Source of the DNA: Candidatus Saccharimonadota bacterium
Lineage (GTDB): Bacteria > Patescibacteriota > Saccharimonadia > Saccharimonadales > UBA4665
DNA length: 61,166 nucleotides
Direction: 5' to 3'
Assembly: GCA_027346135.1 (NCBI GenBank)
Contig: DAIESS010000002.1
Location: 1-61,166, forward strand
The position numbers were made by a program, and so were the translations under genes. This document shows positions 3,615-37,289 of the stretch, piece by piece. Each line of letters opens with the position of its first letter. Position 1 is the stretch's first letter. A model generated the notes under the pieces. That model was given only the letters and a program-made list of their open reading frames with translations. It did no database searches and was not told the DNA's origin.

Positions 3615-5762
3615 TTGAGTAAAACTATAAATCCTTATGGCCGAGACCTTATAACCGTCGAAACCGAATTTTGTGGCCGAAAATTGTCGCTAGAAGTTAA
3701 CCGCGTTGGTTTTCGTACATCCGCCAGTGTGTTAGTCCGTTATGGTGACACCGTCGTACTTGGTACGGCCATGGTGAGCCCAAATGTTGTCCAGGGGATG
3801 GACTACTTCCCCTTAAGCATCGACTACGAAGAAAAATTTTATGCAGCTGGTAAGATTTCGGGCAGCCGCTTTATTAAGCGGGAAGGTCGCCCAAGTGATG
3901 ACGCTATCCTAATCGGTCGTTTGATCGATCGCCCAATTCGTCCGCTGTGGCCTAAGGGCTACCGCCATGAAGTGCAGGGTGTCGCCACGGTTTTGAGTAT
4001 GGACCCGGCCTTTCGCCCTGACATGGTGGCTATGATTGCCATGAGTACTGCTTTTATGTTGACCGGCGCTCCGTTTGACGGTCCGGTGGCTGGCGTTCGT
4101 GTCGGCATGAACGACAAGGGTGAATACCAGGTGTTTATGACGCCTGAAGAGTTGAATGAGGGCAAGCTTGACCTCGTTGTGGCCGGTACCAAAGACGCCA
4201 TCATGATGGTTGAGGCCGGCGCTCGCGAGGCAAGCGAGGAAGATATCGTTGGTGCGTTGGAATTTGCTCAGACGGCTATTAAGCCGGCTGTTGAGTTGCA
4301 GCAACAACTTGTCAAAAAAGTTGGCGTAACTCCTCAGGAGTATGAACTACTTAAGCCCGAGCCGGCTATCCAGGAAAAGGTTGATGCTTGGCTCGAGGGC
4401 AAGCTTGGGGCTGCTTTGCGGGCACCATACCCAGAGCGTAACGCCTTAGTTCGCACTTTGCACGATCAAATGCACGATGAGTTTGTGGCTGAGATTGGCG
4501 AGGACGACTACAAAGACGTCCGCAACCACTACGCCGAAGCTTTCGAGCTAGCCATTCACAAGGACGTCCGCAAGGGCATTGTCGAAGAAAATATTCGCCC
4601 TGACGGCCGCAAACTCGACGAAATCCGCCCTCTAAGCAGTGAAGTCGGTTTCTTGCCACGAGCGCACGGTTCGAGCCTGTTTACCCGTGGTGTCACTCAA
4701 GGTATGAACATTGTTACCCTGGCGCCGCTTAGCTACGCTCAGCTGGTCGACACTATGGAAGTCCGCGACGGCGAACGCCGCTACATGCACCACTACAACG
4801 CGCCGGGCTACACCGTTGGTGAAGTTCGTCGCTTGGGTTCGCCGGGTCGCCGCGAAATCGGCCACGGTTACTTGGCCGAGCGAGCTTTGCTGCCGGTTTT
4901 GCCGAGTGAAGCCGACTTCCCGTACGCTATTCGTTCCGTAACCGAAATTATGAGTCAGAACGGCTCAACTAGCATGGCGGCAACTTGCTCTAGCTGTTTA
5001 GCGCTGATGGACGCCGGTGTGCCGCTCAAAGCCCCGGTTAGTGGTATTGCTATGGGCTTGATGGTTGACGGCGATAAAACTTACGTCTTGAGCGACATTG
5101 CTGATGCTGAAGACTTTGCTGGCGACATGGACTTCAAGGTTACTGGTACCAGCCAGGGCATTACGGCCTTACAGATGGATATGAAAGTGCACGGTTTGCC
5201 GGTCGCAACCCTTAAGCAGGCGCTTGAGCAGGCCAAGGGCGGTCGAGCCTTCATTTTGGAGCACATGTTAACGACTTTGGCCGAACCGCGCAAAGAGCTT
5301 AGCCCATATGCACCGCACGTTGAAGCTATCCAGATCAACCCCGACAAGATTCGGGAAATCATCGGTAAGGGTGGGGAAACCATCCAGAAGATTACGGCCG
5401 AGACTGGCACCGAAATCGACATTAAAGACGATGGTACGGTTATGATTGCAAGCCCCGACAAGGCCAAGATTGAAGCTGCCAAGCAGTGGATTGCTGACAT
5501 CGTTGAGGAGCCGGAAGTCGGTAAAATTTACCGTGACAAACCGGTTGTTAGCGTCATGGACTTCGGTGCTTTCGTTCAGATCATGCCCGGTAAGGATGGC
5601 CTGGTTCACGTTTCAGAAATGAAGGACGAGCGCGTTAACAAGCCGAGTGATGTCGTTAAAGAAGGCGACAAAGTTACCGTTAAATTACTGGCAATCGACG
5701 AACGCGGCCGCTTGCAACTTTCGATGAAAGCCGCCGCCAAAGAGTTAAACGAGAAGAGTTAA
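3615..5762 (+). CDS. pnp: polynucleotide phosphorylase (PNPase)
   Basis: Two RNase PH domains plus KH and S1 ([21 protein letters not shown]). TTG 3615 follows AGGAAAGGA. The start is uncertain and could be as far upstream as 3507. Confidence 0.9.
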
Positions 5763-5776
5763 ACGCCAAAAATAAT

Positions 5777-5989
5777 ATGCAGCTGCTCAATCGCTTCCAC
5801 AAAACAATAACCGGATTGATTTTGTTTGGAGTGATTGAGCTGGCGCTGGCTTATGGCGCGGCCAGTTGGGCGATCGACAGTGGCAATTTGCTGCTTTATG
5901 TTGCCACCATCGTCTTGGTCTTCGGCGGTTTGCGCAATTTTGCTAAATTAATGAGTAACGTTATCCATGGCAAGCGACAAACAAACTAA
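5777..5989 (+). CDS. small membrane protein (70 aa)
   Basis: Two hydrophobic helices. Tightly packed between pnp and udg. Confidence 0.45.
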   Translation: MQLLNRFHKTITGLILFGVIELALAYGAASWAIDSGNLLLYVATIVLVFGGLRNFAKLMSNVIHGKRQTN

Positions 5990-8692: not shown

Positions 8693-9016
8693 ATGAGTAA
8701 TCATGAACAAAACCAAAATCCAGATGAAAATGACAATCCCTATGTCGAAAATTTTTGGGAGCCGGCCGACGATCGCCAGCAATATCCGCGAACGCGTGAA
8801 GATGCCGAAATTGGCATAACCGAACAATTCAAAGATGAGCTAGCCAGCGAGCCTAACGTCGTGGGTCGTGCCCGTCATGAGCCCACATCTGATAAGCCGC
8901 TTGAGGATATAAGTGCTTTGCCCGAAATCTCCCAGGAGCCGGAGGTTACGAAGCAATCTCTGGCAGCAAAAATAGCCGGTTTGCTAGGCAAGCTTAGGCG
9001 ACACGATGGCGAATAG
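8693..9016 (+). CDS. hypothetical acidic protein (107 aa)
   Basis: ORF directly behind a consensus promoter. The composition looks disordered. Confidence 0.45.
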   Translation: MSNHEQNQNPDENDNPYVENFWEPADDRQQYPRTREDAEIGITEQFKDELASEPNVVGRARHEPTSDKPLEDISALPEISQEPEVTKQSLAAKIAGLLGKLRRHDGE

Positions 9017-9077
9017 TGCTTGCCACGGTGTCTTAGAGAAAAATTAGTCGTGTTGGCTCGATAAACAGAGCGACTAA

Positions 9078-9106
9078 TTGACAAATGATGTAATTTTTGC
9101 TATAAT
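9078..9106 (+). promoter_or_regulatory. sigma70-like promoter abutting ATG 9116
   Basis: TTGACA-17 nt-TATAAT, with 9 nt to the ATG. Confidence 0.5.
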
Positions 9107-9115
9107 ACCGTCATT

Positions 9116-9436
9116 ATGACAGAACGACCACCTGAACATCCTGACGATTTCCAAGACTACGACGATAGACGAGATCCTTGGGCAGTGAAGGATGTATTGG
9201 CGGAGATCCGAGAGGCTTTAAGCGCCAGTTGGATTGAAGAGGGCCAAGTGGCTGAAGAAGAGGCTAAGGAAAATCCTATAGCAACCGACGACCCGGAATT
9301 GGCGGCAGCCCTGCAGCGGCTAAGAGCTTTGCTCGATCCGCTGACTCGGCCTGCCAGTGTTAGCGATGAAGAACTTAAATCGGCTGAAGATGAAGTACAC
9401 CGTCTGCAGGCCAAAAACAAAGACCCGGAACAGTAG
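9116..9436 (+). CDS. hypothetical acidic protein (106 aa)
   Basis: ORF behind a consensus promoter. Confidence 0.45.
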   Translation: MTERPPEHPDDFQDYDDRRDPWAVKDVLAEIREALSASWIEEGQVAEEEAKENPIATDDPELAAALQRLRALLDPLTRPASVSDEELKSAEDEVHRLQAKNKDPEQ

Positions 9437-9474
9437 ACGCACCAAGGTTAAAAACGTATAATATAAAAACTGTT

Positions 9475-11691
9475 ATGGCAAAAAAGAAACAAACTCGAAA
9501 AAAGAAACAACCAGTCGTCGAAGACGTCGTTGAGCGGTCACCATTTTGGGGACTAGCTGGCGGCGTTTTGTTGTGCGTCGTAGCGCTATTTCTGCTGTTA
9601 GGTGGTTTTGGCACCGGTGGACCGTTGCCGGTCAATTTATTCAAAGGTGTTTACGCCGTGTTTGGCTGGGCGGCATATTTATCGCCGGTAGCCATGGCTT
9701 ACTGGGGTGTTTATAAAATCACCAGCGAGGACCGACGGGTACCGCTAAGCAAGCTGCTGGGCATGTTTAGCGTCTTATTATTTAGCGCCGGCTGGCTGCA
9801 CGTATCGTTTGCTAGCCGCAACGATGCCGGTGCCTGGGTCGGTGGCTTTGGCGGCGCAGCCGGGCGGGTGATTGGCGGCATGATTTTAAGTGCCCTCGAC
9901 AAATGGCCAGCCGGAATCTTGTTCTTTGTACTCACCATCCTGGCCGTTTTCTTCGCTTTTGCGATTTCACCGAAGGTTATTCTCGATTTCTTTGCGATGT
10001 TTAAGGCCGAGGGCACCGAGGAAGGCGCTGCAACTGATTTGGCGGCACTCAAGGCTCGCGCTGAGCATACCGGCTTTAAGATGAATGAGGGTGTGCCGGT
10101 TGAGCATCACACTGCCCGCGAGGATGCTCGCTTGAGCAGCATGAAGAATACGGCCAAGAAGCTTACGCCGGCCGAGGACCATGTGGCTTTGACTATCGCC
10201 AGCGACCCGGACTGGCAATTGCCGCCGATTACTTTGCTGAACCAAAAGCAGGACAAGGCTAACGCCGGCAATGTCGAAGGCAATGCCGACATCATTCAAG
10301 ATACATTCGCGAACTTCAATATCGACGTCGAAATGGAAGGCGCCAACATTGGTCCGCGCGTCACCCAGTTTACGCTTAAGCCGCCAACAGGGGTAAAACT
10401 GACCAAAATTACGGCACTTGAAAACAACCTCATGCTCGATTTGGGTGCTCAAAGCATTCGTATGGAAGCGCCAATCCCTGGTAAGCGAGCGGTCGGCATC
10501 GAGGTACCAAACATCACACCGGCCGTCGTGCGGGTGAGTTCGCTGTTAACGTCCGAGCCGTGGAATAAACTCAAGAGTCCGCTTGGATTCACTATTGGTA
10601 AAGACATTTCCGGCCAGCCAATTGTCGCTGATTTGGCAAAAATGCCGCACTTGCTGGTGGCTGGTCAAACTGGCTCTGGTAAATCGGTCATGATTAATAC
10701 ATTCTTGACGAGCCTGCTGTACCGTAATAGCCCAAGCGACCTTAAATTGATCTTGGTCGACCCTAAGCAGGTTGAAATGGCGCCTTACCATGATATTCCG
10801 CACTTGCTTACGCCAATCATTAACGAGCCGGAAAAGTGCATTAGCGCTCTTAAATGGGCGGTGGCTGAAATGGAGCGCCGTTTGCGCACTATGGCCGAAG
10901 TTGGCAAGCGCAACATTGGCGAATACAACGACCTTAAAAAAGAAGAAGGCATGCCGTACATCGTTATCGTCATCGATGAGTTAGCTGACCTGATGATGAT
11001 GGCGGCTCGCGATGTCGAAGCACTGATCGTACGCATTGCCCAAAAGGCTCGTGCCGCTGGTATTCACTTGGTACTGGCAACGCAGCGTCCGTCTGTCGAC
11101 GTTATCACCGGTTTAATTAAAGCTAACGTACCTGGCCGTATTGCGTTTACGACGCAGTCTCAGGTTGACAGTCGCACCATCATCGACCAAGCTGGCGCCG
11201 AAAAACTATTGGGCCGTGGTGACATGTTGCTTTTGACAAGTGAAATGCCCAAGCCGAAGCGTATCCAGGCTGCTCTTATTGAGGATGCTGAGACGGCTAA
11301 AGTTATGGATTTCTTGCGCAACCAGCGACCGCCACGCTATGACGACGAAGTGGTCAGTCAACCGGTCGTTTTGAACGGTAAGGGCGGCATAGTCGCCGAC
11401 ATGGGTGGTAACGACGCTGATGACGACATGTGGCAGGACGCCGTTCGGGTGGTAATTGAGGGTCGCAAAGCATCGACCTCACTCTTACAGCGCCGTTTAC
11501 GGATTGGTTATGGCCGAGCCGCTCGTTTGATCGAACAAATGGAAGAACAGGGTATTGTAGGTCATGCCGACGGCTCTCGACCGCGCGAAGTTTTGGTTAA
11601 CAGCCTGGATGAAGTCTTTGGTGGCAGTGAGCCGGACGGTGCTACGCACATCCCAGTTGAAGACGACAACGAAGCCTACTCGAACGCTTAA
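9475..11691 (+). CDS. ftsK: DNA translocase FtsK/SpoIIIE
   Basis: N-terminal TM helices, Walker A GQTGSGKSV, DELADLMM, and a C-terminal gamma wHTH (LLQRRLRIGYGRAARLIEQME). Confidence 0.92.
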   Translation: MAKKKQTRKKKQPVVEDVVERSPFWGLAGGVLLCVVALFLLLGGFGTGGPLPVNLFKGVYAVFGWAAYLSPVAMAYWGVYKITSEDRRVPLSKLLGMFSVLLFSAGWLHVSFASRNDAGAWVGGFGGAAGRVIGGMILSALDKWPAGILFFVLTILAVFFAFAISPKVILDFFAMFKAEGTEEGAATDLAALKARAEHTGFKMNEGVPVEHHTAREDARLSSMKNTAKKLTPAEDHVALTIASDPDWQLPPITLLNQKQDKANAGNVEGNADIIQDTFANFNIDVEMEGANIGPRVTQFTLKPPTGVKLTKITALENNLMLDLGAQSIRMEAPIPGKRAVGIEVPNITPAVVRVSSLLTSEPWNKLKSPLGFTIGKDISGQPIVADLAKMPHLLVAGQTGSGKSVMINTFLTSLLYRNSPSDLKLILVDPKQVEMAPYHDIPHLLTPIINEPEKCISALKWAVAEMERRLRTMAEVGKRNIGEYNDLKKEEGMPYIVIVIDELADLMMMAARDVEALIVRIAQKARAAGIHLVLATQRPSVDVITGLIKANVPGRIAFTTQSQVDSRTIIDQAGAEKLLGRGDMLLLTSEMPKPKRIQAALIEDAETAKVMDFLRNQRPPRYDDEVVSQPVVLNGKGGIVADMGGNDADDDMWQDAVRVVIEGRKASTSLLQRRLRIGYGRAARLIEQMEEQGIVGHADGSRPREVLVNSLDEVFGGSEPDGATHIPVEDDNEAYSNA

Positions 11692-18740: not shown

Positions 18741-19844
18741 TTATTTAGTGACGTTGAATTTGAATTCCACGACATCGTTCGGCTGCATGACGTAAGTTTT
18801 GCCTTCGGTACGGACTTTGCCGGCGGCCTTGGCGGCAGCTAGCGGCGAGCCATTGGTCTGGTCGGCGCTTAGGGAGATGAGATCGTTGTAGTCGATAATT
18901 TGAGCGGCGATGAAGCCTTTCTCGAAGTCGCCGTGAATAACGCCCGCGGCTTGCGGGGCGGTAGCGCCCTTGTGAACCGTCCAGGCCCGTACCTCTTTTT
19001 CGCCAGCGGTAAGATAACTTTGCAAGCCAAGCGTGGCATAGGCGGCATGTATAAGTTGGATTAAGCCAGATTCCTTTACGCCATAGCTTTCGAGTAGTTC
19101 AGCGGCATCGGTGGCATCTAAGCTGCGCAGCTCACTTTCCAATTTGGCACAGACAAACAGGGCGGGTGACGGCGCAACCAATTCACGTAGTTTTTGCTGG
19201 TGGGCGGTGTCGGTCAAACCGTCTTCGTCAAGATTGAATACATATATTACTGGCTTAGCGGTTAACAACTGAAGGTCGGCAATGTGCTCGCGGTCGATGT
19301 CTGGTTGACTCCAGATGGGCTGGCCGCTGTCGAGCAGAGTGCGAACTTGTAAAATCGTGTCGAGTACGGGCTTTAATTTCGGGTTAGCTCGGGCTTCTTT
19401 TTCGAATTTATTAAGTCGGTTAGTAACGGTTTGTAAGTCGGCCAGGACCAATTCGGTGTTAATGACATCGATGTCTTTAGCCGGGTCGTGTTGCTCGTCG
19501 ACATGTTGAACGTTAGGGTCGTCAAAGGCCCGTACAACCTGCACGATGGCGTTCGTACTACGGATATGGCTCAAAAATTGATTACCCAGACCTTCACCCT
19601 TACTGGCGCCGGCTACCAGTCCAGCAATATCAACAAAGCTAACCGTTGCTGGAACGATATTGTTAGTTTTGTACAAAGAGGCTAGCTTTGTCAGCCGCTC
19701 ATCCGGTACGGGTACTATGCCGGTATTTGGTTCGATAGTCGCAAACGGATAATTAGCCGCCAGAATGTTGCTGTCGGTTAGGGCATTAAACAACGTGGAT
19801 TTACCAACGTTGGGCAAGCCGACGATGCCAATGGATAAGCTCAT
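18741..19844 (-). CDS. ychF: redox-regulated ATPase YchF
   Basis: IGIVGLPNVGKSTLFNALT and a C-terminal TGS-like domain. Confidence 0.95.
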   Translation of the reverse strand: MSLSIGIVGLPNVGKSTLFNALTDSNILAANYPFATIEPNTGIVPVPDERLTKLASLYKTNNIVPATVSFVDIAGLVAGASKGEGLGNQFLSHIRSTNAIVQVVRAFDDPNVQHVDEQHDPAKDIDVINTELVLADLQTVTNRLNKFEKEARANPKLKPVLDTILQVRTLLDSGQPIWSQPDIDREHIADLQLLTAKPVIYVFNLDEDGLTDTAHQQKLRELVAPSPALFVCAKLESELRSLDATDAAELLESYGVKESGLIQLIHAAYATLGLQSYLTAGEKEVRAWTVHKGATAPQAAGVIHGDFEKGFIAAQIIDYNDLISLSADQTNGSPLAAAKAAGKVRTEGKTYVMQPNDVVEFKFNVTK

Positions 19845-19872
19845 AATTTATATTGTAACAGAGGCAAAATAG

Positions 19873-19901
19873 TTGACAAAACATAATAGTTTTGCTATTA
19901 T
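19873..19901 (+). promoter_or_regulatory. unit A promoter
   Basis: TTGACA-17 nt-TATTAT. Confidence 0.55.
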
Positions 19902-20000
19902 ACGGCCGAACTGTTGGAATAGTGGCGGCACTATTACTCTTTGGAGTTCCGTATTTTTAGTACGATGATGGTCGTGCTGCTTGCCAACGTTCGTTTATTT

Positions 20001-20015
20001 AACATGTCAGATTGT
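20001..20015. repeat. inverted repeat L1 (AACATGTCAGATTGT)
   Basis: Exact reverse complement of 20496-20510. Confidence 0.9.
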
Positions 20016-20181
20016 CCGGATATTTAGACGAGAGTTTAAGTGTCTAGTGTCACAGCAGGCGCACGACCGAGAGTCGCACACTTCCTGTGATACTAAACCC
20101 CGGTGTTTGGTTGCTCACTGATGTAAACCATGATTTTGACCCATCCCGAGTCAAACGTGGCGATTTACGAAAGGACACACC

Positions 20182-20322
20182 ATGAACACGAGCGTCAAGA
20201 ACATCGTCATGCCTGTCCGCAAGGTCGGCACGAAGGTCGGCGTCGCCGTCACGGCAGTGGTCACCGCAACTGCTGGCGTCATCGAGCTGATCCTTACTGG
20301 GGGAAACTACCCCTGGAACTGA
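20182..20322 (+). CDS. 46-aa hydrophobic peptide (MNTSVKNIVMPVRKVGTKVGVAVTAVVTATAGVIELILTGGNYPWN), payload of unit A
   Basis: The ATG sits at the same position behind the shared CGAAAGG RBS as the unit B gene. Contains one predicted TM helix. Below the ORF-track cutoff. Confidence 0.45.
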   Translation: MNTSVKNIVMPVRKVGTKVGVAVTAVVTATAGVIELILTGGNYPWN

Positions 20323-20379
20323 TCGCTCTCTACGAACGCCGTTGCTGTTGGCTGACAACATATCGGCGTTTGTGTCGTT

Positions 20380-20451
20380 GGGCTAAGAGGCGGTGGACAT
20401 TCGTCCATCCAAAAGACGCGGTTCCAAACCGTACGTCCACCCCTCTAGCCC
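20380..20451 (+). other. conserved 3' hairpin module, unit A
   Basis: GGGCTAAGAGGCGGTGGAC .. GTCCACCCCTCTAGCCC gives 17 bp with two bulges. Inner hairpins are TGGAC-attc-GTCCA and GACGCGG..CCGTACGTC. Confidence 0.6.
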
Positions 20452-20495
20452 TGACGGCCCCCTTACACCCCAACCCTCACTCTCCTCAACAATCC

Positions 20496-20510
20496 ACAAT
20501 CTGACATGTT
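20496..20510. repeat. inverted repeat R1 (ACAATCTGACATGTT)
   Basis: Reverse complement of L1. Confidence 0.9.
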
Positions 20511-20614
20511 TCTTTCCATATTTTTGAAAGTTCAGAGTTTATCTGGGTTTGAATAACATGTGGAAGCAACTTCAACCGCCGGTTCACTAGGGCCCTGTAA
20601 CAGAGGCGAGATGG

Positions 20615-20643
20615 TTGACAAAACATAAAAGTTTTAGTATGAT
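20615..20643 (+). promoter_or_regulatory. unit B promoter (lies between R1 and L2)
   Basis: TTGACA-17 nt-TATGAT. Confidence 0.55.
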
Positions 20644-20740
20644 ACAACAGCAATTTTGGAATTGTAGAGGCATTAGTATTATTTTGAGCGCCGTACGCAT
20701 GTACGATGACGCTCGTGCAGCTAACCAAAGTTCGCACATT

Positions 20741-20755
20741 AACATGTCAGATTGC
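20741..20755. repeat. inverted repeat L2 (AACATGTCAGATTGC)
   Basis: Exact reverse complement of 22672-22686. Confidence 0.9.
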
Positions 20756-20936
20756 AAAGATATATTAGCTGGATTTTTGAGTGTCTAGTATCGCAGCAGG
20801 TGCACGACAAATTATCGTTAATGGTCGCACTCTTACTGTGATACTGGACACCACATTGTGTTTGGTCAATCACGGCATGACACCATGATTTTGACTCATC
20901 CCGAGCCAAAACGTGGCTACCCGAAAGGGAACCCTC

Positions 20937-21809
20937 ATGAAGGACGGAAATCAGCTTGCCCGAAAGGCACTGGAGCTGCGCTTCAGCCTTTCCCGGGTGA
21001 TCGGTGGGCTTGTTGTGGCAATTGTCGGTTGCGTCGCCCTCGTCATGGGGACGAGCTTCACCGCCGATGCCGCCACGACCGTGACCACGGTGACCGCTTC
21101 GTACGCGGCCCCCACGGTGCAGTGCTCGCCGCTCGCGGTGGTCATCCCCAGTTCGCCTGGGTACGACTACTACATGTCGACCGGGCGCACCGGCTTCACG
21201 CTGGTGGCGGCTGGCAGCTACCCCGTGTCGACATCCGACCTCCCGGTCGGTGTATCGGTGCGACTGGCTGGTTCATCGCCCGATGGGCCCCCGCTGCAGT
21301 TCTGGGACCTGAGCGCGGACATCACGGCCTGTGGCACGACGACGTCAACAACGCCGCCGACGACCACCACGACCACTCCGCCGGTCACGACCACCACGTC
21401 GCCGCCGACGACCACCACGACCACGACAACGCCACCGACGACGACGTCAACAACGCCGCCGACGACCACCACGACCACTCCGCCGGTCACGACGACAACG
21501 ACGCACACCACGTCAACGACGCCGCCCACGGTGACTTCGACCTCTACGTCGTCTACGACTCCGGTCGTGACGAAGACGACCAAGACGTCGTCTCACGTAG
21601 TGGTCGTGGGGCACGGCAACAACCGCAACACCCCGAGTTCCACCTCGACCTCCGCCTCGCGTGCAGCGGGCGTGGGTACGGGTGGTCAGCTCGATGCAAC
21701 CAAGACCAGCAGCAGCTTCCCGCTGCTCCCGGTCGGTCTCATCGCCGCCGGCCTCCTGCTGGCAGCGACAGGCCTGAGGAAGCCCCAGCGTGTCAGGGCG
21801 ACACGCTGA
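20937..21809 (+). CDS. secreted Thr/Pro-rich surface protein with a sortase-type C-terminal anchor architecture
   Basis: Signal peptide (..VALVMGTSFTADA), TTPPTTTTT repeats, and a C-terminal hydrophobic helix plus RKPQRVRATR tail. ATG 20937 was chosen by homology with the unit A RBS/ATG. GC-rich. Confidence 0.75.
   Translation: MKDGNQLARKALELRFSLSRVIGGLVVAIVGCVALVMGTSFTADAATTVTTVTASYAAPTVQCSPLAVVIPSSPGYDYYMSTGRTGFTLVAAGSYPVSTSDLPVGVSVRLAGSSPDGPPLQFWDLSADITACGTTTSTTPPTTTTTTPPVTTTTSPPTTTTTTTTPPTTTSTTPPTTTTTTPPVTTTTTHTTSTTPPTVTSTSTSSTTPVVTKTTKTSSHVVVVGHGNNRNTPSSTSTSASRAAGVGTGGQLDATKTSSSFPLLPVGLIAAGLLLAATGLRKPQRVRATR
21339..21493 (+). repeat. tandem repeat, 53-bp perfect copies with a 102-bp period
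   Basis: ACGACGTCAACAACGCCGCCGACGACCACCACGACCACTCCGCCGGTCACGAC occurs at 21339 and 21441. Confidence 0.85.
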
Positions 21810-22569
21810 GCACAGCGGTCACCGCTGGCTCAACTGGTCGGTAGCCCTCGGAGTAACCCTGGTTATGCTGGGGATGGTCCTTTGGGCTACCGGCCAACTG
21901 GGGACAGTTGCTGGAAGTAGCGCTTCGGCTCAGCCGACGCGAACCTTGCCAGTAACACCCTCAGGTTCGGCGGTGCCGCCAACGTCGTCTTCGTCGACGA
22001 CCACTGGTGCGCCGCGACCCGCGACGACACCAACACCAACTCACAAGGCAAAATCGACGACGGCTACTCCGCCATCAGCGGTAACTTCGCACAGAATTGT
22101 CTCGGTCGAGATTCCTGCTATTGGGGTCAAGGCCAAGGCAAGCGGAGGCATCGTGCCAACGGCGTCATCGCGCTGCGAGGGTAGTGGCGTAGCTATCTGC
22201 TACGACCCACCGGTGTTAACCGAGGTGGCCTGGGGCTCGCTCTGCGCGCTACCAAGCATCCCCTCGCACGACACCGTGTGTCTGTTTGGTCACAGTAATC
22301 GCTTCTATCCGGACAGGCAGGTCTTCAACGACCTACCCAAGCTACGGACTGGCGACAAAATCATCGTGACGACAGACACGGCGGTTTTCATCTACCGGAT
22401 GGATAAAAACCCGATTTGGGTAAACTTCAACCGTGTAAGTGAGTCCGACTGGGTTTGGGCGAAAGTTCCGAACCGACTCGTTGCCATTACGTGCACGATT
22501 GGCTCCAGTAGCTATACGGGAGCAACCGTCGCGGAGGCGACAATCGTGTCGGTTCGGCCGCTGGGCTAA
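21790..22569 (+). CDS. sortase-family transpeptidase
   Basis: N-terminal TM, Pro/Thr linker, LFGHSN (His), LRTGDKIIV, and LVAITCT (Cys). Overlaps the upstream gene by 20 nt. GC-rich. Confidence 0.72.
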   Translation: MSGRHAEHSGHRWLNWSVALGVTLVMLGMVLWATGQLGTVAGSSASAQPTRTLPVTPSGSAVPPTSSSSTTTGAPRPATTPTPTHKAKSTTATPPSAVTSHRIVSVEIPAIGVKAKASGGIVPTASSRCEGSGVAICYDPPVLTEVAWGSLCALPSIPSHDTVCLFGHSNRFYPDRQVFNDLPKLRTGDKIIVTTDTAVFIYRMDKNPIWVNFNRVSESDWVWAKVPNRLVAITCTIGSSSYTGATVAEATIVSVRPLG

Positions 22570-22634
22570 GAGGCGGTGGACGTTTGTCCATTTAAAAGAC
22601 GCGGCTAACGCCGTACGTTCACCCCCTCTGGCTC
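22563..22634 (+). other. conserved 3' hairpin module, unit B
   Basis: The 5' arm is identical to unit A. The 3' arm carries three substitutions that all keep pairing as G-U wobble. Confidence 0.6.
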
Positions 22635-22671
22635 TGGTGGTATATATCACTCTTGCCTTAATCGGCAGCCC

Positions 22672-22686
22672 GCAATCTGACATGTT
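22672..22686. repeat. inverted repeat R2 (GCAATCTGACATGTT)
   Basis: Reverse complement of L2. Confidence 0.9.
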
Positions 22687-22796
22687 TTCCTCCATAATTT
22701 TGAAAGTTCAGAAGCCTTCTGGGTTTGAATAAATATATGGAAGAGGCCGAAGCATGGCCTATTCTTATTGTGCTTGTGGTTTGGTATAGTACATCT

Positions 22797-23321
22797 ATGA
22801 GTGAAATTGTGCTCGACCCAGAGACGGCCGCTAGAAATAAACATCGTCTGCACATAAACCCTCGAACGATGTTGCTGGTTTTGGCCTTGCTAGTATTAGT
22901 GGGTATTGGTTGGGGTGTGCAGTATGTGCTGTTACACCGGACTACAAAGCCTAAGAACACGGTCGCCGATACGTCGCAGAATAGTAGTTATGCCCAATCG
23001 CTCAACGACTGGCGTCAAAAGTTAGCCGCCGCTAAAACGCCGCAGGAAAAGAGCGCTGCTCACCAGGGTTTGGCCAATGTCGAAAGTGCCCAGGGTAATA
23101 ACACGGCTGCTCTAGCCGATGCCCAGGCTGCGGTCAGCAGTGACGGCACCTCTTATGCTGCCTATGCCGTTCTGGCAATGGTAAAAATGCAGGCAGGGGA
23201 CAATGCCGGAGCAATTGCAGCTTATAAAAAAGCTGCGGAACTCGCTCGTGCCACGGGCACGCCGGAAGGTATTCGTGGCGCAAGTGATTACGAAATAATG
23301 GCAGCGAGCGTGGGGCGCTAG
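22797..23321 (+). CDS. membrane-anchored TPR-like protein
   Basis: TM helix (MLLVLALLVLVGIGWG) followed by Ala-rich helical repeats. ATG 22797 lies 6 nt after TATAGT. The ORF-track TTG 22725 lies in the repeat module. Confidence 0.5.
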   Translation: MSEIVLDPETAARNKHRLHINPRTMLLVLALLVLVGIGWGVQYVLLHRTTKPKNTVADTSQNSSYAQSLNDWRQKLAAAKTPQEKSAAHQGLANVESAQGNNTAALADAQAAVSSDGTSYAAYAVLAMVKMQAGDNAGAIAAYKKAAELARATGTPEGIRGASDYEIMAASVGR

Positions 23322-32948: not shown

Positions 32949-32965
32949 GTGATAACATAAGCGTA

Positions 32966-33817
32966 ATGGTTATCGCTCTCTTAATTGTGTTTGGCTTAAG
33001 CCTGGGAAGCTTTGTAAATGCGCTGGTTTGGCGTTTGCACGAGCAAGCCGAGCTGTCGCGGCGTAAGAAAAGGACGAAACAACAAGCTGAATATCTGCAT
33101 GACCTCTCTATTAGTCGAGGCCGTAGCATGTGCCCGCATTGTCATCATGAACTAGCTGCAAAAGATTTGGTGCCGGTTTTGAGCTGGCTGTCCCTAAGGG
33201 GCAAGTGCCGCTATTGCCAAAAGCCGATTAGTTGGCAGTATCCGCTTGTCGAGCTGCTGATGGCAGTGATATTTGTTTTTACTTATCTTTACTGGCCATT
33301 AACCCTGAGTGGCCAAAATTGGGTACAATTTGCAGCTTTTCTAGTACTTCTAGTAGGTTTTATGGCTCTGAGTGTATATGATATCCTTTGGTTTCTATTG
33401 CCCGACAGACTGATTGCGCCTTTAACTTTCATTGCCGTGGTGACGGTTCTATTTGTTAGTTTCACGAGCCACGATGGCTTGGCGACTTTTGCCAATGCAG
33501 CCGGCGGAGCGACTGTCATAGCGATTCTATTCTATGCTTTATTTTGGTTTTCAAAAGGCCAGTGGATAGGCGGAGGAGACGTCAAGCTAGCGCCAATGTT
33601 AGGTCTGCTGGCAGGCAATCCAATCAAAGCCTTGTTGGTCGTTTTTTTCGCCTCTTTAATTGGACTTCTGGTGGCCGTACCACTGATGATAAGAGGAAAG
33701 GCTAATCGGTCTAGTCATATTCCTTTTGGCCCTTGTTTGATGGCGGCCGCTCTATTGGTGGTATTATTCGGCGGTAATATAGTGCATGCCTACGAAGCAG
33801 TATTTACGCTGAACTGA
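32966..33817 (+). CDS. pilD: prepilin peptidase PilD (A24 family)
   Basis: CPHCHH..CRYCQ zinc motif, multiple TM segments, and GGGDVKL. Confidence 0.9.
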   Translation: MVIALLIVFGLSLGSFVNALVWRLHEQAELSRRKKRTKQQAEYLHDLSISRGRSMCPHCHHELAAKDLVPVLSWLSLRGKCRYCQKPISWQYPLVELLMAVIFVFTYLYWPLTLSGQNWVQFAAFLVLLVGFMALSVYDILWFLLPDRLIAPLTFIAVVTVLFVSFTSHDGLATFANAAGGATVIAILFYALFWFSKGQWIGGGDVKLAPMLGLLAGNPIKALLVVFFASLIGLLVAVPLMIRGKANRSSHIPFGPCLMAAALLVVLFGGNIVHAYEAVFTLN

Positions 33818-33853
33818 TATCATGCCGAATACGCTTATGTTATACTTGACCTC

Positions 33854-36356: not shown

Positions 36357-37289
36357 TTAGTTAGCGCTCGACTCTTTATGTGTGGCGTTATGGAATTTCT
36401 CGTGTGTTGCTTTAAGATGTGGGTCGGTTACGTGGGTATATATTTGTGTTGTACTGATGTTGCTGTGGCCGAGCATGGCTTGAACGGAACGCAGATCGGC
36501 TCCATTCATGAGCAAATCGGTTGCGAAACTATGGCGCAATGTGTGTGGGCTGACGTGCTTGGTAATGCCGGCTAGCAAGGCGTAGCGAGCGACTAGCCGT
36601 TGGACACTGCGAGCTGTCAGTCGGTGGAAGTTGCCGGTCAAATCCACCTTTTTCGTACCGCTGTAGCGCACAAAAAGCGGCCGGGCAGTGTCCTTTCGTT
36701 CCTGCAAGTATTGTTCAATGCGGAGAGCGGCTTCCGGGCTGATAAAAATCGGCCGGTCTTTTTGGCCCTTACCACGTACCATAAATTCCCGCCGTTTTAG
36801 GTTTATGTGATCGCGATCGAGTCCCACTAGTTCTGACACGCGCAGCCCGCTACTGAACAGTAATTCCAGGATTGCCCGGTCTCGCTTGCCCACAAGAGTC
36901 GAGGTGTCGGGCACATCGAACATGCGCTCCAACTCTTCTTCGCTTAAAAATGTGACCTGTTTTCGGACCGTTCGAGCCAGCTCGATCTTATCGGCGGGCA
37001 GAGCAGATACATCGCGTTTGGCACAATATTTTAAGAAGCCGCGCAGGGCAATCAGGTGGTAATTTTGGGTGGTCTTTTGAAGCTCGTCAGAGGTATTGGT
37101 GCCTAGCCGGTTCAGCCATAAACGCCATTTGCGGACCAGTTCAACATCAATTTCGCTGACGTTTATGTCGCCGGCAAAATCAAGCAGGCGGGTCAAGTAA
37201 TGATCATAATTAGCAATCGTTTTTTGCGACCGGTTTTGTTCGATTTCCATATATTCCAGGAAATCGGTTTTAGCTCGCTGAAACTTCAT
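36357..37289 (-). CDS. tyrosine recombinase, XerC/XerD family
   Basis: N-terminal SAM-like domain. C-terminal HTLRHSFATDLL..LGHSNISTTQIYTHV with the catalytic Tyr. Confidence 0.88.
   Translation of the reverse strand: MKFQRAKTDFLEYMEIEQNRSQKTIANYDHYLTRLLDFAGDINVSEIDVELVRKWRLWLNRLGTNTSDELQKTTQNYHLIALRGFLKYCAKRDVSALPADKIELARTVRKQVTFLSEEELERMFDVPDTSTLVGKRDRAILELLFSSGLRVSELVGLDRDHINLKRREFMVRGKGQKDRPIFISPEAALRIEQYLQERKDTARPLFVRYSGTKKVDLTGNFHRLTARSVQRLVARYALLAGITKHVSPHTLRHSFATDLLMNGADLRSVQAMLGHSNISTTQIYTHVTDPHLKATHEKFHNATHKESSAN

Follow-up and report, generated by a model that had tools for sequence, protein, structure and literature searches.

Inverted arm pairs around surface-protein genes beside a type IV pilus cluster in a Saccharibacterium, and their possible role as a long-range mRNA stem

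The window analysed here is a stretch of 61,166 nucleotides from Candidatus Saccharibacteria, tiny bacteria with a parasitic way of life. At its ychF-TPR locus, beside a type IV pilus cluster, two units are arranged in tandem. These are unit A (19854-20556) and unit B (20596-22732), which share 78-84% identity over promoter, leader and trailer. Both follow a common plan, in which a promoter close to consensus is followed by a structured leader, a GC-rich payload and a trailer that is likewise structured. The promoters, terminators and folds of all units are predictions from sequence. The promoter of unit A lies back to back with the minus-strand ychF promoter (19879-19852), and its block is kept in unit B as well as in two related loci, L023 and L013. 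At the other end, the tail of unit B is directly 5' of the TPR gene promoter and its leaderless start (22797); this second promoter block is kept in the related loci L010 and L011. The features of the two units are as follows.

19873..19901, +, unit A promoter, TTGACA-17-TATTAT, TG-extended (11/12 consensus matches)
19908..20000, +, unit A leader part 1, a closed 5' domain with small hairpins within a TTGG/CCAA closing stem (consensus fold)
20001..20015, +, unit A left arm, AACATGTCAGATTGT (exact match and repeat search)
20046..20094, +, unit A leader part 2, a long imperfect hairpin (conserved with unit B)
20182..20322, +, unit A payload, a 46-residue ORF for a small hydrophobic protein, with an AAAGGA ribosome-binding site upstream
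20380..20451, +, unit A 3' hairpin, starting at a remnant of the sortase stop codon, GGGCTAAGAGG (consensus fold; the remnant aligns with the sortase 3' end)
20496..20510, +, unit A right arm, ACAATCTGACATGTT (exact match and repeat search)
20511..20556, +, unit A tail, a U-rich stretch, a small hairpin GTTCAGA/TCTGGG and TTTGAAT (84% identical to the unit B tail)
20615..20643, +, unit B promoter, TTGACA-17-TATGAT (11/12 consensus matches)
20741..20755, +, unit B left arm, AACATGTCAGATTGC (exact match and repeat search)
20787..20845, +, unit B leader part 2, a long hairpin (consensus with unit A)
20937..21809, +, unit B gene 1, a 290-residue surface protein
21865..22569, +, unit B gene 2, a sortase (Pfam PF04203, E = 6.3e-9)
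22563..22634, +, unit B 3' hairpin, with the sortase stop codon inside its internal loop (consensus fold)
22672..22686, +, unit B right arm, GCAATCTGACATGTT (exact match and repeat search)
22687..22770, +, unit B tail, a small hairpin and a terminator-like site (22744-22760 plus ATTCTTATTG)

The 290-residue protein of unit B is rich in threonine and proline, with an N-terminal signal or transmembrane segment, a C-terminal transmembrane anchor and a GC content of 65-69%. Over its N-terminal domain, it is 42% identical to the payload protein of L023. The sortase reading frame is open from 21790, although the gene callers place its start at 21865. This enzyme is 72% identical to the sortase of L010, 60% to that of L004, which lies on a 70%-GC contig, and 47% to that of L023. 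The payload genes were apparently copied from high-GC actinobacterial hosts. Very few relatives were recovered when the sortase and the TPR protein served as queries for homologues. The 46-residue protein of unit A gave no family match, and an identical copy of it is called on four independent contigs. It was also considered that unit A is a deletion derivative of unit B. The last ~45 nt of the sortase are indeed kept in it, but its reading frame has no detectable similarity to unit B, and this origin was rejected.

Each payload is enclosed by one inverted pair of short arms, a placement first pointed out in an earlier note. The left arm sits within the 5' leader, with the start codon 166-182 nt downstream, and the right arm lies 45-38 nt downstream of the 3' hairpin. 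All four copies reported there are exact, with AACATGTCAGATTG at 20001-20014 and 20741-20754 on the forward strand and its reverse complement at 20497-20510 and 22673-22686. When up to two mismatches are allowed, these four arms are the only matches in the window; 0.33 matches were expected in the shuffled window, and none of 100 shuffles gave four or more. Perfect 14-nt inverted pairs are expected by chance only 0.016 times in the 2.95-kb region. Because a T:A in unit A and a C:G in unit B add a 15th base pair, the arms match over 15 bp in each unit, and the repeat search found both pairs 100% complementary (20001-20015/20496-20510 in unit A; 20741-20755/22672-22686, ...GATTGC/GCAATC..., in unit B). 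The motif is not a common dispersed one, since neither the window nor ~150 kb of related loci without the cassette contained a further copy, and a DNA uptake sequence was rejected as its identity because the window search found no dispersal. The four copies, however, belong to one duplicated unit. Units A and B are tandem duplicates and thus not independent evidence, so that the arm pair counts once within the window.

It is the external evidence that, on comparison of the related loci, lifts the arm pair above chance or duplication. L013, a Saccharibacterium whose YchF is only 71% identical, carries the 13-nt core pair at the corresponding locus too, where it encloses an unrelated gene that is rich in GC. 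Its arms (TGACATGTCAGATTG at 5011-5025 and the complement at 5863-5877) enclose a 64%-GC gene for a 209-residue protein ending in LPKTGA, and an 8-bp stem with a U6 run, terminator-like, follows the right arm. This locus carries a single unit, and its leader and trailer are otherwise unalignable with those of the window. L023 and L010, whose contigs end early, have one arm each. Complete arm pairs number three (A, B and L013), two of them being duplicates. In all units the 13-nt core is invariant, the neighbouring bases change jointly on both sides and the duplex stays 15 bp long. Conservation tapers both outward and inward from each arm. The core of L013, L023 and L010 has TG...CA ends and contains a 10-bp palindrome, TGACATGTCA, which is broken by a G-to-A change in the window. 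The neighbourhoods of eight other YchF relatives (78-83% YchF identity) have neither the motif nor an analogous long-range pair of another sequence. The distribution is therefore patchy, the unit being absent from these eight and present in one relative at 71%.

Searches further afield returned little. Both 15-mers were scanned in viral contigs, giving 36 and 30 singletons and no second arm within those loci. A metagenome scan with the 3'-hairpin and right-arm pattern gave no match, and one with the left-arm and GATAnTTAG pattern gave two chance matches, both inside coding regions. Against Rfam, the region 19800-22800 at E <= 10 gave no match save a chance sX5 inside the sortase gene; the whole window at gathering thresholds gave nothing, which covers group I and II introns, ribozymes, riboswitches and T-boxes. 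No published description matching the arm-pair element was found, and an empty slot (promoter, leader part 1 and tail without arms) was not seen among the related loci.

In the predicted transcripts, the arms lie on one RNA and outside the coding sequence. When the full transcripts (653, 2091 and 981 nt) were folded by partition function, the arm duplex received a probability of ~1.0. In unit A, 20001-20015 pairs with 20496-20510 at probabilities of 0.35-1.0, with the core at 1.0, and in unit B, 20741-20755 pairs with 22672-22686 at 0.73-1.0. The unit A helix comprises 15 perfect base pairs together with the interrupted extensions GGAU/AUCC and GAGAG/CUCUC. Across homologues, complementarity appears to be maintained by compensatory change. 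The window has A:U at position -1 where L013 has G:C, and at position 15 the U:A of unit A corresponds to C:G in unit B. Of 16 pairs compared over three rows, 13 never vary and two differ on both sides, and no one-sided change falls inside the 15-bp duplex; the score is matched by 69 of 500 shuffles and is not statistically decisive. Furthermore, because the arm pairs are all Watson-Crick, the arms themselves cannot separate RNA from DNA. The pair-specific 15th base, to which the earlier note had drawn attention, is real on both sides, but as RNA it would confer almost no partner specificity, as the left arm of A is predicted to pair with the right arm of B via U.G at -21.1 kcal/mol against -20.8 with its own right arm.

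Leader part 1 is 73-77% identical among A, B and L023, and its consensus fold has 27 pairs, four of them compensatory. The hairpin of leader part 2 differs between A and B by G.U to A-U transitions, and L023 and L013 have a hairpin of another sequence at the same position. The consensus 3' hairpin of A, B and L010 also has 27 pairs, of which three are compensatory, and it contains sense-strand G.U pairs that would be A.C if read on the opposite strand. In these predicted folds, the untranslated regions near the arms behave as sense-strand structured RNA.

We favour, at roughly even odds (probability about 0.5), the reading in which the two arms pair as RNA into a long-range helix that would close the mRNA and act as a processing or stability stem. 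It is proposed that each unit is transcribed from its own strong promoter into a single RNA. Along this RNA would lie, in order, the 5' domain of leader part 1, the left arm, the long hairpin, the ribosome-binding site and coding part, the GC-rich 3' hairpin, the right arm, the small hairpin and the terminator. Once transcribed, the right arm would pair with the left arm into a perfect 15-bp duplex of about -21 to -23 kcal/mol and close the entire coding part into a loop. As the arms are in untranslated regions, ribosomes would not unwind the duplex. A double-strand-specific RNase, such as RNase III, could then cut the stem and release a defined mRNA. Cut or uncut, the paired ends would protect the foreign GC-rich message from RNase J at the 5' end and from PNPase and RNase II/R at the 3' end. 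A classical RNase III site has about two helical turns of double strand, and 15 bp is short for that. The window contains no rnc gene. The organism encodes RNase J, PNPase and RNase II/R. Of the two possibilities raised in the earlier note, an RNA clamp fits best, given the promoter and terminator placement, the structured leader and trailer, the two-sided changes and the fold probability of ~1, with the pairing itself being a prediction. From these features we infer pairing in the cell, cleavage and stabilisation of the message by the arm helix. The G-to-A change in the window, by which the palindrome TGACATGTCA is lost and left-right complementarity is kept, suggests that pairing, and not a dimer-binding site, has been under selection. 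The identity of the 13-nt core amid unalignable flanks exceeds what pairing alone needs, which implies a sequence-specific reader or a role at the DNA level.

Such a role is the basis of the chief alternative, in which the arms would delimit an exchangeable gene cassette, either as terminal inverted repeats served by a transposase elsewhere, such as those of a mobile insertion cassette, or as sites of a site-specific recombinase. Host-derived genes could thereby swap into a fixed expression slot by ychF; we regard this boundary, together with the exchange that it would permit, as possible but on the unlikely side. Differing payloads do lie inside the same arms, namely the surface protein and sortase of B and L010, the 42-47% identical pair of L023, the LPKTGA protein of L013 and the 46-residue ORF of A. 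The window sortase is nearer to that of the 70%-GC organism than to that of L023, which implies separate acquisitions into the same slot. When unit B is compared with L023, similarity amounts to 77% (z = 17.8) as far as the left arm; it ends exactly at the inner edge of the arm and is at the random level (z = 0.8) immediately beyond. This break and the patchy distribution may be read as easily as cassette exchange, yet a conserved RNA element alone would serve as a microhomology breakpoint in transformation. The invariant core, with its palindrome and TG...CA ends in three lineages, resembles the ends of many DDE transposons, and the region upstream of ychF is an insertion hot spot, with a serine-recombinase element there in L024 and L025. 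Against this, none of the three complete units has a 2-9 bp target-site duplication (flanks TTT/TCT in A, ATT/TTC in B and CTT/TTC in L013), on which ground a transposon was ruled out. The unit is known from the ychF-TPR locus alone among the window and related loci searched; no cognate insertion sequence with the same ends was found, and the window has no transposase. There is neither a transposase nor an invertase within 10 kb, and the only recombinase of the window is of the Xer-like tyrosine type (36357-37289), 14 kb off. The arm tips are mutated in the window, yet complementarily at both ends, which is not predicted for a decaying or an active transposon end, and conservation runs outward past the arms, a misfit with a transposon tip. 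Leader part 2, just inside the arms, is AT-rich like the recipient genome and not GC-rich like the donor, so that the arms do not bound imported DNA. The earlier note's recombination sites, allowing inversion, deletion or duplication, found no direct support.

The remaining explanations are weaker. In a phase-variation switch, an invertase would flip the segment between left and right arms, or else the promoter segment that lies between A-right and B-left, and so toggle expression of the surface protein. Inverted repeats of about 15 bp round a surface-protein operon are the classic layout of such a switch, and the 230-bp segment 20511-20740 between A-right and B-left holds a promoter. But the expressed orientation is found everywhere, in the window, in the near-identical strains L001-L003 and in the diverged L013, L023 and L010 (as these are consensus assemblies, a rare minority orientation would escape); no invertase is adjacent or within 7-10 kb, and A-right and B-left mismatch at the 15th base. 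L013, moreover, has one unit only, which makes the promoter-between-arms layout a by-product of the duplication in the window, and a switch is very improbable. Hardly better placed are operator sites on DNA, at which a regulator, for example the Crp/Fnr-family protein two genes beyond ychF, would bind both ends and loop or silence the unit. The invariant core and the palindrome of L013, L023 and L010 would suit such binding, and the Crp-family gene is syntenic in all relatives; many of these, however, lack the motif, which is also missing from all other promoters of the window, and the palindrome is broken in the window though left-right complementarity is kept. Crp/Fnr-type sites have a 4-6 bp spacer between half-sites, and the half-sites of the motif have none, by which a Crp/Fnr box is ruled out. 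An integron gene cassette was rejected in view of the absence of an integrase and attC, the separate promoter of each unit, the pairing of partners across the payload and not inside a single 3' site, and the 15th-base mismatch between A-right and B-left. The motif agrees at about 8 of 11 positions with the XerD arm consensus, but a Xer/dif module, judged by eye, was rejected as there is no XerC arm and no 6-bp spacer architecture.

Among known systems, the stems of precursor rRNA are close to the favoured RNA helix. There, RNase III cuts the helices that the 5' and 3' flanks of 16S and 23S rRNA form with each other across 1.5-3 kb. Similarly, a long-range helix would form here between the flanks of a long insert on one transcript, with the functional part looped, and the arms are far better conserved than the adjacent spacers. 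Unlike the rRNA stems, the arm pair encloses a foreign protein-coding message, has 15 perfect base pairs and few interrupted ones, and its cleavage is a proposed one. The icaR mRNA of Staphylococcus aureus pairs its own 5' and 3' untranslated regions, forming a duplex proposed as an RNase III substrate, and its 3'UTR pairs with the Shine-Dalgarno sequence and blocks translation (PMC3868564). Pairing within one bacterial mRNA is shared, here as a prediction, but here the start codon follows the left arm at a distance of 166-182 nt, and the predicted ribosome-binding site accessibility is unchanged. In unit A, the SD-AUG region has a mean unpaired probability of 0.44 with and 0.43 without the right arm, and in L013 the value is 0.42 either way; a translation lock of the icaR or hok type was thus rejected. 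The arm pair has no evident regulatory pay-off at the ribosome-binding site.

Type I toxin mRNAs, for which a fold-back or long-distance 5'-3' interaction is described in hok (PMC9841398) and aapA1 (PMC5416894), also pair the 5' end with the 3' end of the full-length transcript, as predicted here, and unit A encodes a hydrophobic peptide of 46 residues. The comparison with hok drawn in the earlier note holds for this geometry; it does not extend to function, since over 160 nt separate the left arm from the ribosome-binding site and the clamp is unconnected with its sequestration. Neither an antisense RNA gene nor a toxin family match was found here, and the same clamp also surrounds a 1.6-kb two-gene operon (B) and a 209-residue secreted protein (L013). 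At the DNA level, mobile insertion cassettes carry passenger genes between inverted repeats of insertion-sequence type, with no transposase (PMC4337579, PMC5444012). Transposase-free, differing passengers between the same short ends are common to both, but here there is no target duplication, a single locus and no cognate insertion sequence found, the ends change complementarily, and conservation continues outside them. Invertons such as fimS, Hin/hix, the Bacteroides promoter inversions and the hsdS invertons (PMC7672463) likewise have short inverted repeats round a segment tied to surface-structure genes. The present units differ in that no sequence has a second orientation, no invertase is adjacent, and in the single-unit relative L013 the repeats enclose genes and not a promoter.

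Saccharibacteria live attached to Actinobacteria, and to our knowledge the way in which they recognise and attach to their hosts is mostly unexplained. Genes that look freshly acquired from hosts, for cell-wall-anchored surface proteins with their own sortase, are placed here beside pilus genes in a strongly promoted, purpose-built unit. The arm pair is the defining mark of this unit and is kept across lineages that otherwise share little at the locus. An RNA clamp, if true, would offer a clear example from nature of an mRNA that its own ends hold closed, the conserved sequence hinting at a specific reader; a DNA boundary, if true, would be a new way to capture host genes. More speculatively, and in our view rather doubtfully, the arm pair may mark a dedicated expression slot by the type IV pilus cluster for genes captured from actinobacterial hosts, with the arms being both a boundary for DNA exchange and an RNA clamp stabilising the foreign GC-rich message. 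Slot, boundary and clamp together would, if true, constitute a new system of gene capture and expression in an obligate episymbiont. On either reading, ACATGTCAGATTG in inverted pairs gives a short, searchable signature for host-derived genes in these genomes.

The 14-mer AACATGTCAGATTG is found in exact copies on the plus strand at 20001 and 20741, and its reverse complement, again exact, at 20497 and 22673. With up to two mismatches allowed, the two sequences have these four matches in the whole 61,166-base window and no others, against 0.33 matches in shuffled sequence. Through repeat finding, two 15-nt pairs of 100% complementarity were obtained, 20001-20015/20496-20510 and 20741-20755/22672-22686; the number of perfect 14-nt inverted pairs expected in the 2.95-kb stretch is 0.016. 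The four copies in two inverted pairs that the earlier note had described are thus borne out, in exact position as well as in complementarity. The arm pair, a left arm in the leader and its reverse complement, the right arm, in the trailer, is a real, non-random and conserved cis element.

All four arm copies belong to two tandem copies, unit A (19854-20556) and unit B (20596-22732), which are 84% identical in the 5' part and 78% in the 3' part. Each unit runs from a promoter through leader 1, the left arm, a long hairpin, a ribosome-binding site with a GC-rich coding part (the payload), a 27-pair 3' hairpin and the right arm to a short tail.

Features of units A and B
19873 (A) and 20615 (B): near-consensus sigma-70 promoters, 11 of 12 consensus matches
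about 95 nt between promoter and left arm: leader 1, predicted to form a closed domain with small hairpins
20046-20094 (A) and 20787-20845 (B): long imperfect hairpin after the left arm
20182-20322: payload A, a 46-aa hydrophobic ORF
20937-22569: payload B, a 290-aa Thr/Pro-rich surface protein and a sortase

Across A, B and a related sortase locus, L010, the 27 pairs of the 3' hairpin include three compensatory pairs as well as G.U pairs on the sense strand, and the sortase stop codon lies within its internal loop. The last 45 nt or so of the sortase gene are retained in unit A, and a ychF promoter copy, now decayed, is present in unit B; A and B are therefore products of a tandem duplication that took in the whole segment. 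The ychF promoter itself (minus strand, TTGTCA-16-TACAAT, TG-extended) stands back to back with that of unit A (window 19852-19901), and their -35 hexamers are almost identical. Neither ychF nor the TPR gene, which starts at 22797, seems to have a leader; their -10 boxes stand 6-7 nt upstream of the ATG. Four independent contigs carry the 46-aa ORF of unit A, MNTSVKNIVMPVRKVGTKVGVAVTAVVTATAGVIELILTGGNYPWN, in identical form, and a ribosome-binding site precedes it. No known family matches it; from its sequence, this putative gene looks like a small membrane peptide.

All four arms, oriented as in the window, are present in three near-identical strains (L001-L003). In L013, a Saccharibacterium sharing 71% YchF identity with the window, a single unit occupies this locus.

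Features of the L013 unit
5011-5025: left arm TGACATGTCAGATTG, after the promoter
5147-5776: payload gene of 64% GC, encoding a secreted protein of 209 aa that ends in LPKTGA
between payload and right arm: perfect 16-bp GC hairpin
5863-5877: right arm CAATCTGACATGTCA, followed by a small hairpin and a good terminator (both predicted)

The leader and trailer of L013 are unalignable with the window except for the arms and about 10-17 nt on either side. Its unit has no sortase gene, and LPKTGA stands at the very C-terminus of the payload protein, with no hydrophobic tail beyond the sortase motif. In L023 (YchF 82%), the promoter and leader 1 are 77% identical to unit B and the left arm is TTGACATGTCAGATTGC. 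Leader 2, which follows it, is unalignable with the window, yet a hairpin occupies the corresponding position in it, with another sequence. The L023 payload consists of a different surface protein (42% identical) and a sortase (47%); the contig stops before the right arm, so that the left arm alone is visible. Conversely, the L010 contig begins too late to include a left arm and carries a sortase (72% identical), the 3' hairpin and GCAATCTGACATGTC. Eight other relatives, with YchF identities of 78-83%, lack the unit; in one of them ychF directly adjoins the TPR gene. In both L013 (4995-5036) and L023 (2168-2205), the left arm is central in an imperfect palindrome of about 40 nt that is 72-78% complementary. 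It could therefore pair first with the end of leader 1 as a local hairpin, before the right arm is transcribed; such a hairpin may be a kinetic folding intermediate.

A 13-base core, ACATGTCAGATTG, is identical in every arm seen, and the positions flanking it vary jointly on both sides.

Pairing at the positions flanking the core
-2: U.U in window A, U.U in window B, U:A in L013
-1: A:U in window A, A:U in window B, G:C in L013
15: U:A in window A, C:G in window B, U.C in L013

The duplex is 15 bp long in all three complete units, its register being shifted by one; within it, two positions changed on both sides and none on one side only. The covariation score was reached by 69 of 500 shuffles and, with three rows, is not statistically decisive. 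A G-to-A change in the window removes the internal palindrome TGACATGTCA and leaves left-right complementarity intact. Even with three rows, such joint changes, together with the loss of the palindrome, form a telling pattern at the sequence level. The 15th base, which had been proposed to be pair-specific, does differ in the DNA (T:A in the 20001/20496 pair, C:G in the 20741/22672 pair); however, it confers no real partner specificity, because the left arm of A with the right arm of B forms a U.G at -21.1 kcal/mol.

The most probable reading of the arm pair is a long-range RNA clamp belonging to a modular unit that expresses host-derived surface-protein genes. Both arms lie within the predicted transcript and outside the coding sequence. 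The conservation of leader and trailer is of the RNA type, in that sequence drifts, structure stays and G.U pairs fall on the sense strand. When the full-length transcripts of A, B and L013 are folded, the duplex has a probability of about 1.0, with computed energies of -20.8 to -22.7 kcal/mol; in A and L013 it is extended inward by interrupted pairs (GGAU/AUCC and GAGAG/CUCUC). The two arms of one transcript would pair and close the ends of the mRNA, and the clamp would serve as a stem for processing or stability, comparable with those that enclose rRNA precursors, which are among its nearest parallels in working principle. Since the genes of the organism include those for RNase J, PNPase and an RNB-family exonuclease, paired mRNA ends would be protective. 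Few 5'UTR-3'UTR interactions are known in bacteria, and those near the clamp in principle are icaR (PMC3868564) and the hok and aapA1 fold-backs (PMC9841398, PMC5416894). The 5'/3' clamp of the earlier note fits best, but the likeness to hok that it drew extends only to geometry: predicted accessibility of the ribosome-binding site is the same with and without the clamp, so a processing or stability stem is favoured over a lock of the hok or icaR type. The units match no Rfam family, and a full-text literature search returned nothing on such an element in Saccharibacteria.

Alternatively, the arms may mark the boundary of a cassette in the DNA, where the nearest likenesses are mobile insertion cassettes (PMC4337579, PMC5444012) and invertons (PMC7672463). 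The core is conserved far beyond what pairing requires, different payloads lie between the same arms in different lineages, and the distribution of the unit is patchy. The window sortase is closer to that of a high-GC contig, L004 (60%), than to that of L023 (47%), which implies that the slot took in genes more than once. Furthermore, B and L023 resemble each other precisely as far as the inner edge of the left arm, with z = 17.8 up to that point and 0.8 beyond. However, conservation tapers outward from the arms as well as inward, and the sequence immediately inside them is AT-rich, like the recipient, rather than GC-rich, like the donor. A conserved RNA element would also be a natural microhomology breakpoint for diverged alleles recombining after DNA uptake. 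There is no target duplication, second locus or nearby transposase or invertase, and none of the sequences compared has an inverted or empty configuration. A boundary in the DNA is possible but doubtful, and a new gene-capture slot of which the arm pair is part is a live possibility, though less probable. The earlier proposal of recombination sites permitting inversion or deletion finds no direct support in these sequences; a protein operator is very improbable, and an inversion switch marginally more so. Transposons, invertons and integrons each have defining features, which were looked for here and not found.

The sole recombinase in the window is Xer-like, of the tyrosine type, at the end of the pilus cluster (36357-37289, minus strand); with FtsK upstream (9475-11691, plus strand), it probably serves housekeeping chromosome-dimer resolution. 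In another Saccharibacterium (L024 5353-7032, L025 1383-3062), the gene for a large serine recombinase (559 aa) runs 32 nt into the start of ychF before it ends. It stands at the border of an AT-rich element, about 7 kb long, that carries primase-like and HTH genes. The region upstream of ychF is therefore an integration hot spot in this group.

Outside the units, the whole window has 41 perfect inverted repeats of at least 12 nt spaced 60-5000 nt apart, and 24 direct repeats by the same rule. Shuffled sequence gives 9-20 inverted repeats of at least 12 nt within 5 kb, all counted; the excess is modest. Six inverted repeats of the window have a length of 14-15 nt, mostly within coding sequence. 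A second perfect 14-nt pair, ATAACATAAGCGTA/TACGCTTATGTTAT (32952-32965 and 33830-33843), flanks the prepilin peptidase gene (32966-33817). Both arms are intergenic, one abutting the start codon and the other 12 nt beyond the stop. Its geometry is like that of the unit arms and its sequence different; judged by position, it could be another 5'/3' mRNA pairing, here over the translation start.

The payloads have a GC content of 60-69%, against 49% for the window. The closest genome records to the window are Candidatus Saccharibacteria. Around the units lie ychF and genes for a bacterial PH-domain protein, a Crp-family regulator and a TPR protein, with a type IV pilus cluster after the TPR gene. 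In the surface-protein gene, Thr/Pro-coding repeats (21336-21557) are irregularly spaced by 9-24 nt. The protein, as called, has 290 aa in the window, 294 in L002 and 310 in L001, which suggests repeat-number variation between near-identical strains. The homologue search found very few relatives of the sortase. The closest, 60% identical, is on the 70%-GC contig L004, downstream of a Thr/Pro-rich anchored protein (the two genes together at 8972-10498), in the gene order of unit B, and both sortases end on the same TTGGGCTAAGAG at the stop codon; arms and leader are absent from that locus. The contig also encodes ROK, sugar-ABC and nSTAND-WD40 genes. Composition and homology lead us to infer an actinobacterium-like organism of high GC as the source of the payload. 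Such organisms are the kind of host that these episymbionts live on. The surface protein and its sortase thus look like a recent transfer from an actinobacterium-like host to its episymbiont.
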